36,886 bases of DNA from Dehalococcoidales bacterium (GTDB lineage Bacteria; Chloroflexota; Dehalococcoidia; Dehalococcoidales; JAQTVP01). Positions 14,737 through 20,742 of the stretch are shown here, piece by piece. The translations under genes were made by a program, and so were the position numbers. Under the pieces are notes generated by a model. That model made no database searches and had not been told where the DNA came from. It saw only the letters and a program-made list of their open reading frames with translations. Position 1 is the first letter of the stretch, and each line of letters begins with the position of its first letter. The stretch is taken from the NCBI GenBank assembly GCA_028707015.1, contig JAQTVP010000001.1:1-36886 (forward strand). Reading direction: 5' to 3'.

Positions 14737-15762
14737 ATGAAAGCAATTGAGTGGATGGGTAATACAGCAAAAATTCTAGACCAGACACAACTTCCTCATA
14801 AAGAAGTTTTTCTAGAGCTTGCCCGCTACCAGGATATGGTTTCAGCCATCACAGAATTGAAAATAAGGGGTGCACCTGCCATTGGGGTGGCTGGAGGTTA
14901 TGGAGCGGCTTTGGGCGCCCTGAAAATTAAAACTGCATCAATAAGCGAATTCCAGAGAGAATTTCACACGGTTTGCCAAAAACTCGCTGCCACCCGTCCC
15001 ACCGCCAAGAACCTTTTTCTGGCTCTGGAGCGAATGGAAAATACAGCCAGTAAAATCACCGATATAAAACAGGCTAAAGAGATACTGGTTGCGGAAGCGA
15101 TTAAAATACATAATGAAGAGATTGAAGCCACGCGTAAGCTGAGCCGACTCGGTGCAGAGCTGATTAAAGACGGCGCTACCATTCTGACCCACTGTAACGC
15201 CGGACCACTGGCAACCACCGGCTACGGTACCGCGCTGGGCGTAATCATACAAGCCAAAGAGCAGGGGAAAAAGATTAAGGTATTTGCCGATGAAACCCGC
15301 CCGCTGCTGCAGGGAGCACGGCTGACCACCTGGGAACTGAAGAATGCCGGCGTACCGGTTACCCTGATTACGGACTCTATGGCAGGCTATTTTATGAGCC
15401 AGAGAAAAATCAGCTGCGTTATTGTGGGAGCAGACCGCATCACCACCAATGGCGATACCGCCAACAAAATCGGCACCTACAGCGTGGCAGTGCTGGCAAA
15501 GGAGAACAACATACCTTTCTACGTGGCGGCGCCAACCACCACCTTTGACCTGTCCCTGGCCAGCGGCGAGTTAATCCCCATTGAAGAGAGAAAAGCAAAT
15601 GAAGTAACCCATTTTCAGGGGGTAAGCACCGCCCCGGAGGGCATCAGCGTAGCTAACCCCGCTTTTGACGTTACACCGCACCGCTATATCACCGCTATCA
15701 TTACGGAAAAAGGGATATTACGAAAGCCATTTGAAGAGGGGATAAGGAGAATGCTGAAGTGA
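14737..15762 (+). CDS. mtnA: S-methyl-5-thioribose-1-phosphate isomerase
   Basis: 341 aa. eIF-2B-like fold signatures IRGAPAIGV, THCNAG.LAT..YGTALG, GADRITTNGDTANKIGTY. Confidence 0.9.
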   Translation: MKAIEWMGNTAKILDQTQLPHKEVFLELARYQDMVSAITELKIRGAPAIGVAGGYGAALGALKIKTASISEFQREFHTVCQKLAATRPTAKNLFLALERMENTASKITDIKQAKEILVAEAIKIHNEEIEATRKLSRLGAELIKDGATILTHCNAGPLATTGYGTALGVIIQAKEQGKKIKVFADETRPLLQGARLTTWELKNAGVPVTLITDSMAGYFMSQRKISCVIVGADRITTNGDTANKIGTYSVAVLAKENNIPFYVAAPTTTFDLSLASGELIPIEERKANEVTHFQGVSTAPEGISVANPAFDVTPHRYITAIITEKGILRKPFEEGIRRMLK

Positions 15763-16421
15763 AGGATTTAATAAGCATATGTAACTTTTGGAAAAAGCAT
15801 AAGGTTAAGATTTTAACAGTTTTGGTAGTCATTCTATTATTTTATGCAATAGGAATAAAGTTTAATTTATTAAAGAGTATCCTAAACATTAATGTAAATA
15901 GTGATCTTGTCAATATTATTTCGGTTACTGGCGTTTTATTAGCAGTATTTGTTGCCTGGAAACAGCTAGGCTCTATCAATAAGCATAATAGACATGCTAT
16001 TTTCCTGCAATTACTAAAGGAACTAGGAGAACGAGATAAAAGAAAGAGCAGGCGACTAATCCTTGAACTATACGAGGAAACTAACCTTAAAGATATTAAA
16101 GAAATAATAGGAGACTCTAAAAAACATTACTATCGCATTAAAAACGGCAGAACAAGTATTGATGAATATAGGGATGCCATTGAGGAAACAATTAGCTTTC
16201 TAGATAGACTAAGTTATTTCTTAATAAAAGGCGGAAATGAATTTATAAAAGATGCTCCTATTTGGATCTGGACAATAACCTCACAGATGTATGAAAAAAC
16301 GGATTGGTATATTGACTTCAGGGAGAAAACGCACCCAGGATATGTCAAATATTTTAAAGAGTTAAATAAAATAGCAGAAGAGGAATTGAAAAAACAGGAG
16401 GACAACCATGCCACAGGCTAA
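15759..16421 (+). CDS. hypothetical membrane-anchored protein (DUF4760-like by eye)
   Basis: 220 aa. Two N-terminal hydrophobic helices (ILTVLVVILLFYAIGI; IISVTGVLLAVFVAW) precede a charged helical domain. AAGGAG SD (15744-15749) lies 9 nt before the GTG. The start overlaps the mtnA stop (GTGA) and the 3' end overlaps the mtnP start by 14 nt. Confidence 0.55.
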   Translation: MKDLISICNFWKKHKVKILTVLVVILLFYAIGIKFNLLKSILNINVNSDLVNIISVTGVLLAVFVAWKQLGSINKHNRHAIFLQLLKELGERDKRKSRRLILELYEETNLKDIKEIIGDSKKHYYRIKNGRTSIDEYRDAIEETISFLDRLSYFLIKGGNEFIKDAPIWIWTITSQMYEKTDWYIDFREKTHPGYVKYFKELNKIAEEELKKQEDNHATG

Positions 16422-18318: not shown

Positions 18319-18410
18319 ACACCAGAAAAGCATTTCATATCCACAACTAAAACTAAACGCCAGTAAGTGATGAATGATTTATTACCATGGGTAAAGGAGA
18401 GTAAACACTA

Positions 18411-19427
18411 ATGCCAGAGTTACCGGAAATATTCCAGGCATTAACTAATCCGAAAGCTTACCCTGAAAAAACGCAAATTATACAGCTGATACAAACGCAG
18501 ATGTCTTTTGTTTTTCTGACTGATAATTATGTTTATAAGGTAAAAAAGCCAGTAAATTTAGGGTATCTTGATTACACCACTCTGGAAAAACGCCACATTC
18601 TTTGTCAGCGTGAGGTTGAACTTAACCGCCGGCTTTGTCCTGAGGTATATCTGGGAGTAGTACCAATAATCCGGGATAAGGGTAATATTTCTATAGAAGG
18701 TCAGGGTGAGATTATTGAATATGCAGTGAAAATGCGCCGCCTACCGCAAGACCAAATGATGGACATATTACTAGCAAAGAACCAGGTCTCACTGCAAATG
18801 ATAACTAAAGTGGCACAAAAGATGGCAGAGTTCCACAAGCAGGCAAAAACTAATGCTGATATCAGCGCTTTTGGTAACCTGGACATTATTAACAGAAATA
18901 CAGAAGAGAACTTCAGTCAAACCCAGAAATACATTGGAAAAACTATCTCCGGGGAAGTGTATCAGCATATAAAGAGCTATACCGATAACTTCATCAAACA
19001 AAATGGTTCTTTATTTCAGCAAAGAATAACTAATAGTAAGATAAAAGATAACCATGGGGACCTCCATGCCGCTCACATCTGTTTCACCAAGAATGGCATT
19101 TGTATTTATGACTGTATAGAATTTAATGACCGCTTCAGATACTGTGATGTAGCCTCCGAGGTTGCCTTTCTGGCTATGGATTTAGACCACTACGGACACC
19201 ATGATTTATCCCGGAACTTCGTTAATTCTTACATAATTCAGAGCGGTGATGAGGAGTTACGGCAGCTGCTCAATTTTTACAAGTGCTACCTGGCTTATGT
19301 CAGGGGTAAGGTAGAGGGTTTTAAACTTGACGACCCTTACATTCCGAAAGGAGAAAAGGAAAGAATTCTAGGTATTGCCCGAGATTATTTTAAGCTGGCT
19401 GAATCATATGTAAGTGAAAAGAAATGA
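18411..19427 (+). CDS. APH/protein-kinase-fold phosphotransferase (N-terminal half of the 'bifunctional aminoglycoside phosphotransferase/ATP-binding protein' family)
   Basis: 338 aa. VYKVKKP (ATP Lys), catalytic loop HGDLHAAHI, metal loop IYDCIEFND. AAGGAG SD upstream. Confidence 0.7.
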   Translation: MPELPEIFQALTNPKAYPEKTQIIQLIQTQMSFVFLTDNYVYKVKKPVNLGYLDYTTLEKRHILCQREVELNRRLCPEVYLGVVPIIRDKGNISIEGQGEIIEYAVKMRRLPQDQMMDILLAKNQVSLQMITKVAQKMAEFHKQAKTNADISAFGNLDIINRNTEENFSQTQKYIGKTISGEVYQHIKSYTDNFIKQNGSLFQQRITNSKIKDNHGDLHAAHICFTKNGICIYDCIEFNDRFRYCDVASEVAFLAMDLDHYGHHDLSRNFVNSYIIQSGDEELRQLLNFYKCYLAYVRGKVEGFKLDDPYIPKGEKERILGIARDYFKLAESYVSEKK

Positions 19428-20116
19428 TAGAATTTGGAAATATTATTTCATATTCAGAAATGTGCAAAGAAGAAGATGCTAACTTACAACGAGGGATGTA
19501 CTTCCGATTACATAATAAATACAGCGTTTTGCTAATGAGCCTAAGGAAAAATGCTCCTTACGCCGATAGGATTGAGGAAAATGGGCAAATATTAATTTAT
19601 GAAGGTCACGATAATCCTAAATCGCAAGGTGAAAGTAATAAGGAAAATACAAATCAATCACTATATAATCCTAGTGGTTCATTAAACCAAAACGGATTAT
19701 TTTATACATCAGCATTAAAATATAAAAATGATCAGGAACAAGCGGAAATTATTAAGGTATATGAAAAATTACGTCCTGGTATTTGGGTTTATAACGGTTT
19801 TTATAAGCTAGAAGACGCTTGGCAAGAAATTAGTGATAGTAGAACTGTATTTAAATTTAAATTGCTACTATTAAATAATTCCGAAGATATTAAAATACAG
19901 AACAGGCAAATCGACCACACTCGTATTATTCCTACGTCTGTAAAATTAGAGGTCTGGAAACGAGATAAGGGGCAATGCATAATATGCAAAAGTAAAGACA
20001 ATTTGCATTTTGACCATATAATCCCCTATTCAAAAGGAGGGTCTTCTCTTGTAGCTAGTAATATTCAACTCTTATGTGCCAGGCATAATTTAACTAAAAG
20101 AGATAACATAGAATAA
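19424..20116 (+). CDS. HNH endonuclease with SRA/YDG-like N-terminal domain (candidate Type IV modification-dependent nuclease)
   Basis: C-terminus VWKRDKGQCIICKSKDNLHFDHIIPYSKGGSS..NIQLLCARHNLTKRD is canonical HNH. The N-terminus shows YSVLLMS..YADRIEENGQILIYEGHD ... WVYNGFYKLEDAW ... FKFKLLL, which resembles the SRA signature order. ATGA overlap with the upstream stop. Confidence 0.7.
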   Translation: MIEFGNIISYSEMCKEEDANLQRGMYFRLHNKYSVLLMSLRKNAPYADRIEENGQILIYEGHDNPKSQGESNKENTNQSLYNPSGSLNQNGLFYTSALKYKNDQEQAEIIKVYEKLRPGIWVYNGFYKLEDAWQEISDSRTVFKFKLLLLNNSEDIKIQNRQIDHTRIIPTSVKLEVWKRDKGQCIICKSKDNLHFDHIIPYSKGGSSLVASNIQLLCARHNLTKRDNIE

Positions 20117-20139
20117 CACTAATCGGGAGATTAACACTA

Positions 20140-20742
20140 TTGCGAGAACTATTTTCAGAATTTATAAAAAATAAATTAAGATTCGAATCCCTAGTCATCA
20201 CCTGTGGCTTACCAGCTACCGCTAAAAGCGGTCTGGCTGAAATAACCGCAAAAATTAAAGGGTATTGCCTTCTGCAAAGTGACCAGATTAGACTTGATGT
20301 ACTGAAAAATGAGGATATTTTTGATGAAAAGATTGCCTCAAATATGAATAAACGAACCATAGTTTATGATGAAATGTTCCGGCAAGCAGATATATGCTTG
20401 AGAAAAGACAATGGGGTGATACTGGATGCCACCTTTGTTACAAACGCATTAAGAAGACGGGCAGCAAAAATAGCCGCCCAAAATAACCTGGCACTGGTCA
20501 TTCTGCAAACAGATTGTCCGCAGGAAGTAGCCATCAGACGAATATTGAACCGGACGAAAGATAATTATGAATCTAACGCACTTACTGAAAAAGCATACTA
20601 CAATAATAAAATGGCGTTTGAAAAAGTAAATTTAGATAGCTTAAAACAATTACACCCTAATCTTGATATTATCCACTTAATTGTTGCTACGCAATATGAT
20701 TCTCCGGAGGATTGGTATATTACCAGTATAACCAAGAAATAA
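20140..20742 (+). CDS. AAA_33/zeta-toxin-like P-loop kinase-fold protein
   Basis: 200 aa. P-loop GLPATAKS (a variant of GxxxxGK[ST]), followed by ..QSD.IR.. and ..ILDATF.. (Walker B-like), as in gluconate-kinase/AAA_33 proteins. TTG start, GGGAG 11 nt upstream. Confidence 0.6.
   Translation: MRELFSEFIKNKLRFESLVITCGLPATAKSGLAEITAKIKGYCLLQSDQIRLDVLKNEDIFDEKIASNMNKRTIVYDEMFRQADICLRKDNGVILDATFVTNALRRRAAKIAAQNNLALVILQTDCPQEVAIRRILNRTKDNYESNALTEKAYYNNKMAFEKVNLDSLKQLHPNLDIIHLIVATQYDSPEDWYITSITKK

Follow-up and report, generated by a model that had tools for sequence, protein, structure and literature searches.

A stand-alone SRA-HNH gene in a housekeeping operon of a Dehalococcoidales bacterium probably encodes a modification-dependent restriction endonuclease

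Introduction

Type IV restriction enzymes that join an SRA reader to an HNH nuclease are already known as a class, and TagI (PDB 6GHS), ScoA3IV (Sco5333) and TbiR51I (Tbis1) have been characterised. These three enzymes possess a glutamine in the thumb as well as a pocket with two aromatic walls and an aspartate, and they have no partner methyltransferase; in all these respects they resemble the protein described here. Characterised members belong mostly to GC-rich Actinobacteria and Proteobacteria, whereas the genes of the clade described here are AT-rich and come from Chloroflexota and from archaeal MAGs. MspJI, LpnPI and PvuRts1I likewise perform modification-dependent restriction with a base-flipping reader of the SRA-like type that is joined to a nuclease. 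However, their nuclease is of the PD-(D/E)XK type and not HNH. Some modification-dependent enzymes with SRA-type readers serve to map modified cytosine.

Two further SRA-HNH proteins carry an additional domain. In ScoMcrA (SBD-SRA-HNH, PDB 5ZMM), whose SRA and HNH modules match those of the present protein by fold, a sulfur-binding domain lies N-terminal to the SRA domain. This domain is absent here, and thus no phosphorothioate dependence is expected. HHPV4I (SRA-wH-HNH) is m6A-dependent and, as here, combines SRA and HNH in a single chain. Its specificity stems from the winged-helix domain that separates them, while its SRA domain seems inactive (PMC10101028). In contrast, the present protein has only a ~20-residue linker at this place and its pocket is fully conserved, and m6A specificity as in HHPV4I was rejected because it has no winged-helix domain. 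The best sequence match for the reader is the SRA domain of Arabidopsis SUVH5 (PDB 3Q0B, 4YGI), in which the Tyr-x-Asp spacing is equal. SUVH5, however, is a chromatin protein from a eukaryote, carries a fused SET methyltransferase and reads the mark without cutting.

Here, we describe a gene whose product, judged by domains, residues, fold and context, is most probably a modification-dependent (type IV) restriction endonuclease of the SRA-HNH kind that works alone and needs no NTP. While the SRA-HNH class as such is known, the large and compact 230-residue clade to which the protein belongs is uncharacterised.

Results and Discussion

Gene structure, composition and expression

The window, i.e. 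the whole stretch of DNA that was analysed, comprises 36,886 nt. The SRA-HNH gene is located at 19424..20116 on the forward strand and encodes 230 aa plus a stop codon. According to the ORF list its frame is intact over the full length, and the translation contains all peptides that an earlier, sequence-only reading of this DNA had quoted for an HNH and an SRA-like region. Relatives of ~230 aa form more than 7,900 clusters (90% identity) with 60–72% identity to the protein; by this sequence evidence, which agrees with the Pfam matches and the fold match to TagI, 19424–20116 is a real gene.

Its ATG overlaps the stop codon of the upstream kinase-like gene, as described before; the ATGA is read directly at 19424..19427 (forward strand). 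No Shine-Dalgarno sequence was found in the sequence upstream of the start. Together with the overlap, this suggests that the SRA-HNH gene is translationally coupled to the kinase-like gene, and expression would probably occur by read-through and such coupling. Promoter-like sites occur at the rate of shuffled sequence (25 found versus 26.1 expected) and hence speak neither for nor against the lack of a promoter of its own.

The gene has a G+C content of 31.7% (25% at GC3). Genome-wide (mean 39.8%, sd 3.9%, 693-nt windows) this corresponds to the 2.4th percentile, and within the window it falls into the lowest 0.3%. The earlier hand counts of 19/60 for 19441–19500 and 30/60 for 18601–18660 were exact, and the gene is a genuine compositional outlier, but a moderate one relative to the genome. 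Locally the contrast seems stronger because mtnA and mtnP, at 50–52% G+C, are themselves outliers on the high side.

Domain architecture and predicted fold

The N-terminal residues ~1–150 (19424..19873, forward strand) are predicted to form an SRA (SET and RING associated) reader domain. SAD_SRA (PF02182) scored 30.8 bits over residues 41–148 (E 3e-7), which is 0.1 bit above its cut-off of 30.7. Given this thin margin, the predicted assignment is carried by profile and fold. A family profile built from 25 sequences aligned residues 22–150 to the SRA domain of SUVH5 (E 8e-5). In the AlphaFold model, the strands and helix of residues 7–149 had block-mean pLDDT values mostly of 80–93, with 64–69 in three blocks, and a Foldseek search with this model gave TM-scores of 0.65–0.67 normalised to SRA targets (0.66 for SUVH5 SRA). 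An interdomain linker follows at residues ~151–170 (19874..19933, forward strand), a region that is variable in the alignment and has pLDDT values <50 at residues 159–167. The C-terminal part (19934..20113, forward strand) is an HNH (beta-beta-alpha-Me) nuclease domain, as indicated by matches to HNH (PF01844, 33.1 bits) and HNH_5 (PF14279, 34 bits) covering residues 185–229 and by the invariant residues described below. This domain also aligns to the HNH domains of IscB and Cas9. No additional domain was found by Pfam in the 230-aa protein, and the SRA-type fold starts within the first 10 residues.

The best PDB fold match of the model was TagI (6ghs; E 1.5e-8, 256 aligned columns), followed by SUVH5 SRA-DNA complexes, ScoMcrA, UHRF1, MspJI and LpnPI. 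The whole-chain TM-score to TagI was 0.43 with an rmsd of 15 Å, indicating that the fit holds per domain and not for the domain arrangement. Identity in the fold alignment was 18%, and TagI was not listed among PDB chains at E ≤ 1 by either phmmer or the 25-sequence profile. The link to TagI is thus by fold only and, lacking a sequence-level match, the protein represents a clade of its own in the SRA-HNH architecture. Both domains that the sequence-only reading had recognised by eye were recovered in the Pfam run, the reader barely above its cut-off, the nuclease with its zinc-binding and catalytic residues invariant. The proposed structure prediction returned SRA folds, and the top match to TagI bears out the suggestion that SRA plus HNH is a type IV restriction architecture.

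Predicted pocket, zinc site and catalytic residues

Five residues of the reader, Gln22, Gly24, Tyr46, Asp48 and Tyr59, align with Gln392, Gly394, Tyr416, Asp418 and Tyr428 of SUVH5 and are invariant across 25 aligned relatives (alignment A1). The roles of these SUVH5 residues in base flipping and in the binding of 5mC and 5hmC have been published (PMC4740795, PMC4333417), including that of Gln392 as the thumb residue (PMC4740795). Gln22 (codon at 19487..19489, forward strand) is accordingly predicted to act as the thumb residue and to occupy the space vacated by the flipped base. Within the pocket segment Tyr46-Ala-Asp48 ... Tyr59 (19559..19600, forward strand), the sequence itself shows the codons TAC (19559) and GAT (19565); Tyr46 and Tyr59 are predicted to form the aromatic walls, and Asp48 to supply the carboxylate for the Watson-Crick edge of cytosine.

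In the nuclease domain, Cys185-x2-Cys188, Asp197-His198, Asn213, Cys218-x2-His221 and Asn222 are invariant in the 25 relatives. Cys185, Cys188, Cys218 and His221 are the predicted zinc ligands, and Asp197-His198 (GAC CAT at 20012–20017, read directly from the sequence), Asn213 and Asn222 the predicted catalytic residues. The zinc site is thus CxxC...CxxH, while TagI has CxxD; the CxxH variant is known in the SRA-HNH family from CflDI. A further difference concerns the acidic residue, Asp197, which directly precedes the first histidine (Asp-His...Asn...Asn), whereas TagI has Ala228 in this place and relies on Asp258 farther downstream. In addition, the 6ghs target, with 285 residues, is longer than the protein by about 55 residues. 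Among the 25 aligned sequences, the copy described here diverges most: it shows changes at 12 of 121 conserved columns, and no named pocket, zinc or catalytic residue is affected.

By analogy to TagI, ScoA3IV and SUVH5, the enzyme would act as follows. The N-terminal SRA domain, positioned on DNA, would flip a 5-substituted cytosine (5mC, 5hmC or both) outward; the flipped base would be held between Tyr46 and Tyr59, with Asp48 reading the Watson-Crick edge of this base; after that, the zinc-stabilised C-terminal HNH domain would nick or cut the DNA, at a distance from the modification. His198 would likely serve as the general base and Asp197 and Asn222 as metal ligands, and the enzyme probably acts as a dimer. 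Its likely role would be defence against phages or plasmids with C5-modified cytosine.

Distribution of the clade

The protein is a member of a very large, tightly conserved 230-residue clade that is present in bacteria and archaea. Among 363 genomes of the order, about 30 intact copies were found in a patchy distribution, and decayed copies occur in four genomes (G033, G116, G130 and G318). Homologues adjoin GmrSD_N, belong to an island with HNH_2, NmeDI_C, MazG-like and HNH-HIT genes, or occur singly among housekeeping genes. The G+C content was below that of the flanks in 12/12 homologue loci, as it is in the window. The phylogenetic tree was star-like with a weak backbone and did not resolve a donor. 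In this tree, the protein paired with the metagenomic sequence P0002 (72% identity) and with none of the nine order members, on a long terminal branch of 0.5. The phage and plasmid collections yielded HNH-domain matches only and no full-length SRA-HNH copy. A single biochemical test on the clade would annotate thousands of genes now labelled 'HNH endonuclease' or 'hypothetical', and the clade might yield a small new reagent enzyme.

Cytosine-C5 methyltransferases in host and order

The sequence-only reading had proposed checking the host for the absence of cognate cytosine methyltransferases, which was borne out only in part. In the 88%-complete host MAG, no PF00145 match exceeded the cut-off, while five PF01555 (N6/N4) methyltransferase matches did. 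However, the mobile-element-like contig C255 carries one phage-type C5-like methyltransferase of 221 aa (phrog_757, E 7e-51) with APPC and ENPVG motifs. In the order, PF00145 was present in 4 of the ~30 carriers, compared to 4.0 expected under independence; no depletion was seen across the 363 genomes, in a test of low power that rests on MAGs. Three of the four co-occurring PF00145 matches are atypical or fragmentary, while genome G338 harbours both an intact SRA-HNH copy and a canonical C5 methyltransferase of 331 aa. Thus, a strict incompatibility with any 5mC is not supported by the carriers; the co-occurrence could be due to chimeric MAGs or to methylation that is sparse and restricted by context. 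No methyltransferase is located adjacent to the SRA-HNH gene, and the gene lists of three homologue loci contain, except for one faint UPF0020 match, no C5 methyltransferase family.

This chance-rate coexistence bears on an alternative in which the nuclease is modification-dependent but does not target plain 5mC. It would instead recognise a phage-specific cytosine derivative (5hmC or a hypermodified base) or another flipped base and tolerate 5mC of the host. The specificity of SRA pockets does vary between families (5mC and 5hmC for TagI, 5hmC and g5hmC for PvuRts1I), and the authors of the TagI study consider undiscovered phages with modified genomes as possible targets of SRA-HNH enzymes (PMC6212794). 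However, the pocket residues equal those of SUVH5, whose binding to 5mC and to 5hmC is of about the same strength (PMC4740795), and both the limited power of the MAG-based co-occurrence test and the condition of three of the four methyltransferases lessen the weight of that argument. We consider this alternative unlikely.

A related, more speculative view extends to the clade as a whole. Rather than plain 5mC restriction, it might represent a widely transferred single-gene element that is directed against an undescribed cytosine modification produced by viruses of uncultured Chloroflexota and archaea and that settles precisely between genes of packed housekeeping operons, as at the kinase|AAA_33 junction here, borrowing transcription and translation from its surroundings. 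Such a viral modification as the target would explain the coexistence with host C5 methyltransferases at chance rate; we give this view only a slim chance of being correct.

Genomic context and insertion slot

The SRA-HNH gene has as its neighbours the kinase-like gene, an AAA_33 gene, PHP, ahcY and metK. The left flank of the slot is the kinase-like (APH-like) gene at 18411..19427 (forward strand), identified by its orthologues and the junction alignment; a sequence search with its product against the PDB gave no match. In the junction alignment, its C-terminus extends 4 residues (SEKK) beyond those of its relatives. The right flank is an AAA_33 P-loop kinase gene at 20140..20742 (forward strand; Pfam AAA_33, 70.6 bits) with its own GGGAG Shine-Dalgarno sequence. 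Orthologues of the kinase-like gene were found in 30/40 relatives at 45–73% identity. AAA_33 orthologues come after it in relatives, in which the right junction could be aligned. Open frames of 519–577 aa, as expected for a fused form, were present in 14 of the 30, and an ORF list together with Pfam confirmed two fused ORFs of 517 aa, in which AAA_33 clearly passed its cut-off and APH narrowly missed it.

The slot between the two genes is variable. It is empty in G021 and G040, in which the flanking genes are separate and 26–27 nt apart, does not exist in G001 and G025 owing to a fusion of both genes, and is taken up by unrelated cargo in six other relatives. At least five unrelated cargoes were found: a SAM methyltransferase, Diphthami_syn_2, DUF5714, GIY-YIG and small ORFs. 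That the nuclease split a fused kinase-AAA_33 gene was rejected because the genes are already separate without an insert in G021 and G040, indicating that the split predates the insertion. The order orf342, kinase-like gene, AAA_33, PHP and ahcY is kept without the nuclease in relatives of the Dehalococcoidia-like order, and all nine homologues fetched from the order lie outside this slot.

The juxtaposition with metK and ahcY, which had seemed curious in the sequence-only reading, is hence not a functional one. Given that synteny is conserved without the nuclease and that the slot is empty or otherwise filled, a tie to metK, ahcY or the methionine-salvage genes was rejected. The SRA-HNH gene is without a functional tie to the SAM cycle, and its position among these genes is an accident of the insertion site. 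For SAM-cycle biology the result is therefore negative, the nuclease not being part of it. The gene was acquired horizontally and inserted into a permissive intergenic slot of a housekeeping operon, and the locus illustrates how single defence genes settle in such slots.

The same insertion could also be read as that of a selfish, self-mobilising nuclease gene similar to a free-standing homing endonuclease, in which the SRA domain serves target choice rather than defence. A single AT-rich insert precisely between two genes, neither of which is disrupted, would fit this, as would homologues at many unrelated loci and the very high identity across bacteria and archaea. However, a slot with so many unrelated cargoes is generally permissive and not a homing site, no convincing target-site duplication or terminal repeats were seen on inspection of the junctions, the phage and plasmid collections hold no copy, and a conserved pocket of the 5mC type is without a known use in homing enzymes. 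This reading is improbable in our view. Its narrower form, an HNH homing endonuclease recurring at a single locus, was rejected on account of the nine order homologues outside the slot and of the other fillings of the slot elsewhere. Finally, that the gene is a decaying remnant, or encodes a DNA-binding protein with an inactive nuclease, retained by chance in the operon, is highly improbable despite its divergence and long terminal branch, the lack of its own Shine-Dalgarno sequence and the pseudogenised copies in relatives, as the frame is intact, the pocket, zinc-binding and catalytic residues are all kept, and the changes are mostly conservative or AT-biased.

A minor observation concerns the junctions themselves. 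The sole repeat candidate is the 12-nt AGAWTAACACTA at the right junction; upstream of the start of the kinase-like gene, there is likewise a similar TAACACTA.

Domain architecture and predicted fold of the SRA-HNH protein

An ORF of 230 residues is present at 19424-20116 (+), and its translation holds every peptide quoted in the sequence-only reading, which had described an HNH nuclease with an SRA-like reader domain. Both that observation and the SRA-HNH interpretation stand. Pfam placed HNH_5 (34 bits) and HNH (33.1 bits) on residues 185-229 and SAD_SRA on residues 41-148 (30.8 bits with a cut-off of 30.7, E 3e-7). Matches in PADLOC were limited to restriction-enzyme HNH and similarities in NCBIfam to the HNH of IscB and Cas9. 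A search of PDB sequences with the single protein yielded the SRA domains of SUVH5 and SUVH6 and IscB HNH domains; with a 25-sequence family profile, the SUVH5 SRA match strengthened to E 8e-5. The AlphaFold2 model had a mean pLDDT of 77, with low values confined to the linker (159-167) and one loop (200-207). Its best match in the PDB was TagI (6ghs; E 1.5e-8, 256 aligned columns), followed by SUVH5 SRA-DNA complexes with a target-normalised TM-score of 0.65-0.67 and, further down, KRYPTONITE, ScoMcrA, UHRF1, MspJI and LpnPI. Across the whole chain, the TM-score to TagI was only 0.43 with an rmsd of 15 A, and the agreement is therefore one of domain by domain and not of relative domain orientation. 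Judged from sequence and model, the gene most likely encodes a type IV restriction enzyme of the SRA-HNH class, which is already known.

The residues predicted to contact the modified base were located by HMMER alignment. By chain position in SUVH5, Gln22-Arg-Gly24 falls at 31-33, Tyr46 at 55, Asp48 at 57 and Tyr59 at 67; with a chain offset of 361 these correspond to Gln392, Ser393, Gly394, Tyr416, Asp418 and Tyr428. In SUVH5, the thumb residue Gln392 takes the place of the flipped base, Tyr416 and Tyr428 make stacking contacts with the flipped-out 5mC or 5hmC, and Asp418 forms bonds to this base's Watson-Crick edge (PMC4740795); the TagI equivalents are Tyr55, Asp58, Tyr67 and Gln35 (PMC6212794), and the thumb glutamine is common to bacterial SRA-HNH proteins (PMC4333417). 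In the 25-sequence alignment, Gln22, Gly24, Tyr46, Asp48 and Tyr59 were invariant, as were Asp197-His198, Asn213, Asn222 and a CxxC...CxxH zinc site (Cys185, Cys188, Cys218, His221), a variant already recorded in the SRA-HNH family. In contrast to TagI, the final 'H' of the HNH motif is an asparagine, and an aspartate immediately precedes the catalytic histidine, which resembles HNH domains of the Cas9/IscB type. The window's copy was the most divergent of the alignment, being changed at 12 of the 121 conserved columns against a median of 5; the changes are mainly conservative or AT-biased and spare all the functional residues named here. Substrate, cutting mode and dimerisation would, we infer, follow TagI and SUVH5.

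A large and uniform clade with patchy distribution

A word-indexed search returned at least 7,933 clusters at 90% identity (8,000 candidates scored). Among the best 120 of these, almost all proteins were 228-240 aa long and 60-75% identical, most with precomputed SAD_SRA and HNH domains; the few named sources were Chloroflexota, Dehalococcoidia, Bathyarchaeia and 'Ca. Avalokitesvara'. A library clustered at 50% identity contained only 259 representatives at E <= 1e-30, many of them fragments, and the SRA-HNH clade is thus huge yet very uniform. The papers on characterised SRA-HNH enzymes cover about 160 homologues, mainly from GC-rich Actinobacteria and Proteobacteria (PMC6765204); members of the very large, uncharacterised 230-residue clade are absent from them. 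The maximum-likelihood tree was star-like. The only partner of the window's protein was a metagenomic sequence of 72% identity (support 98/95); none of nine sequences from the protein's own order grouped with it.

Within the order, matches at E <= 1e-10 were spread over 41 genomes, or 34 of the 156 genera, and about 30 of the 363 genomes carry an intact copy. Four further copies are pseudogenised by frameshifts or several stops (G033:C62:28941-29638, G116:C7:4006-4696, G130:C1:867675-868375 and G318:C48:34237-34476, given as genome, contig and positions), which shows that loss occurs beside gain. Such patchy spread and decay are typical for defence genes. No full-length copy was found in PLSDB plasmids or GenBank phages. 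At all 12 homologue loci (L003, L006, L009, L025-L033), as in the window, the gene had a lower G+C content than its surroundings, by 1-18 points at the 12 loci and independently of host base composition. Its neighbourhoods ranged from a position beside GmrSD_N, or alone beside mutS, to an island with HNH_2, NmeDI_C, MazG-like and HNH-HIT genes. The latter, at the metagenomic locus L009 (5062-9313), is a same-strand row in the order HNH_2, SRA-HNH, NmeDI_C, MazG-like, HNH-HIT, and resembles a compact nuclease cluster against modified DNA.

DNA methylation in the host

The notion that the host is without a C5 methyltransferase holds in part: PF00145 had no match over cut-off in the 88%-complete MAG, but one C5-like gene is located on contig C255. 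Five PF01555 (N6/N4) matches over cut-off were obtained in the 1.7-Mb MAG (contigs C151, C66, C55, C136 and C75) and none to PF02384; the host probably methylates its DNA as m6A or m4C. The only C5-like candidate is a 221-aa ORF (L024 3114-3782 (-)) just under the PF00145 cut-off, with a full-length match to the phage family phrog_757 'DNA methyltransferase' (E 7e-51) and the motifs DLCGGTG, APPC and ENPVG in the same order as in C5 methyltransferases. The 15-kb contig C255 (L024 1-15096) also has genes for a DnaB-like helicase, for an MCM-like AAA protein and for an exonuclease-like protein, and resembles a mobile element or virus. This element could be the type of target met by an SRA-HNH nuclease or, alternatively, a binning passenger.

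Of the order's 363 genomes, 48 had PF00145 over cut-off. No match was obtained in the three single-contig genomes that have an intact SRA-HNH copy (G009, G087, G291). Among the roughly 30 carriers, four matched (G219, G223, G300, G338), the number expected under independence; three of these matches are atypical or fragmentary, while G338 has a canonical 331-aa methyltransferase. Co-occurrence at chance level thus does not speak for strict incompatibility, nor, with MAG chimerism and kinship among the genomes, does it refute it.

Insertion into a variable slot between two conserved genes

The SRA-HNH gene lies between a kinase-like (APH-like) gene (18411-19427 (+)) and an AAA_33 gene (20140-20742 (+)). 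Its ATG overlaps the upstream TGA, as proposed (the sequence reads ATGA). No Shine-Dalgarno sequence was found in the 25 bases upstream of the ATG, while neighbouring genes have GGAG-type sites. Promoter-like and terminator-like sites were no more frequent than in shuffled sequence. The earlier base counts of 19/60 and 30/60 were exact on recount, and the gene is compositionally distinct, with 31.7% G+C and a GC3 of 25% compared to 39.8% for the genome (1.7 Mb, 262 contigs). Among 693-nt windows, this is the 2.4th percentile genome-wide and the lowest 0.3% inside the window; the difference from nearby genes is inflated, since mtnA and mtnP (50-52%) lie unusually high.

The relatives compared are labelled Chloroflexota or Dehalococcoidia by their sources. 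Of 40 that were searched, 30 have an orthologue of the kinase-like gene, and the conserved gene order is orf342, kinase-like gene, AAA_33, PHP, ahcY. In 14 relatives the open frame across the kinase-like match spans 519-577 aa, the size expected of an AAA_33 fusion. Fused ORFs of 517 aa were confirmed in G001 and G025 by ORF listing and Pfam (AAA_33 86-92 bits, APH just under cut-off), and the fusion probably extends to other relatives. In closer relatives the two genes are separate, and the split is older than the SRA-HNH insertion. Across the order the slot (window 19427-20140; loci L013-L023) is variable. In G021 and G040 the genes are 26-27 nt apart and the slot is empty, and six genomes hold unrelated cargo, always of lower G+C than the flanking genes: a class I SAM methyltransferase (G019), a Diphthami_syn_2 protein alone (G026) or with DUF5714 (G027), a 118-aa ORF (G018), an 81-aa ORF (G016), and a 182-aa ORF with a GIY-YIG protein (G030). 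All nine SRA-HNH copies fetched from the order reside elsewhere. The adjacency to metK/ahcY, previously regarded as a curious juxtaposition, is therefore real but an accident of a permissive slot; insertion explains it without a special link. In the window, the insert begins directly where the conserved portion of the kinase-like gene closes (...AESYV), and this gene gained four residues there. The insert ends 23 nt upstream of the AAA_33 start and leaves the Shine-Dalgarno sequence of AAA_33 in place. No flanking repeats were found at the insert.

A second AT-rich ORF (15759-16421 (+), 220 aa, 32% G+C) sits between mtnA (50%) and mtnP (52%), with an overlap into each. The ORF matched no Pfam, PHROG or NCBIfam family and only weakly transmembrane effectors in PADLOC; it may be another single-gene insertion. 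Finally, the motif TAACACTA (or TAAACACTA) occurs immediately 5' of two start codons, that of the kinase-like gene and that of AAA_33, and also after the nuclease stop (18399-18410, 20128-20139 and 20113-20121), and could be a common translation-initiation context or else an insertion footprint.
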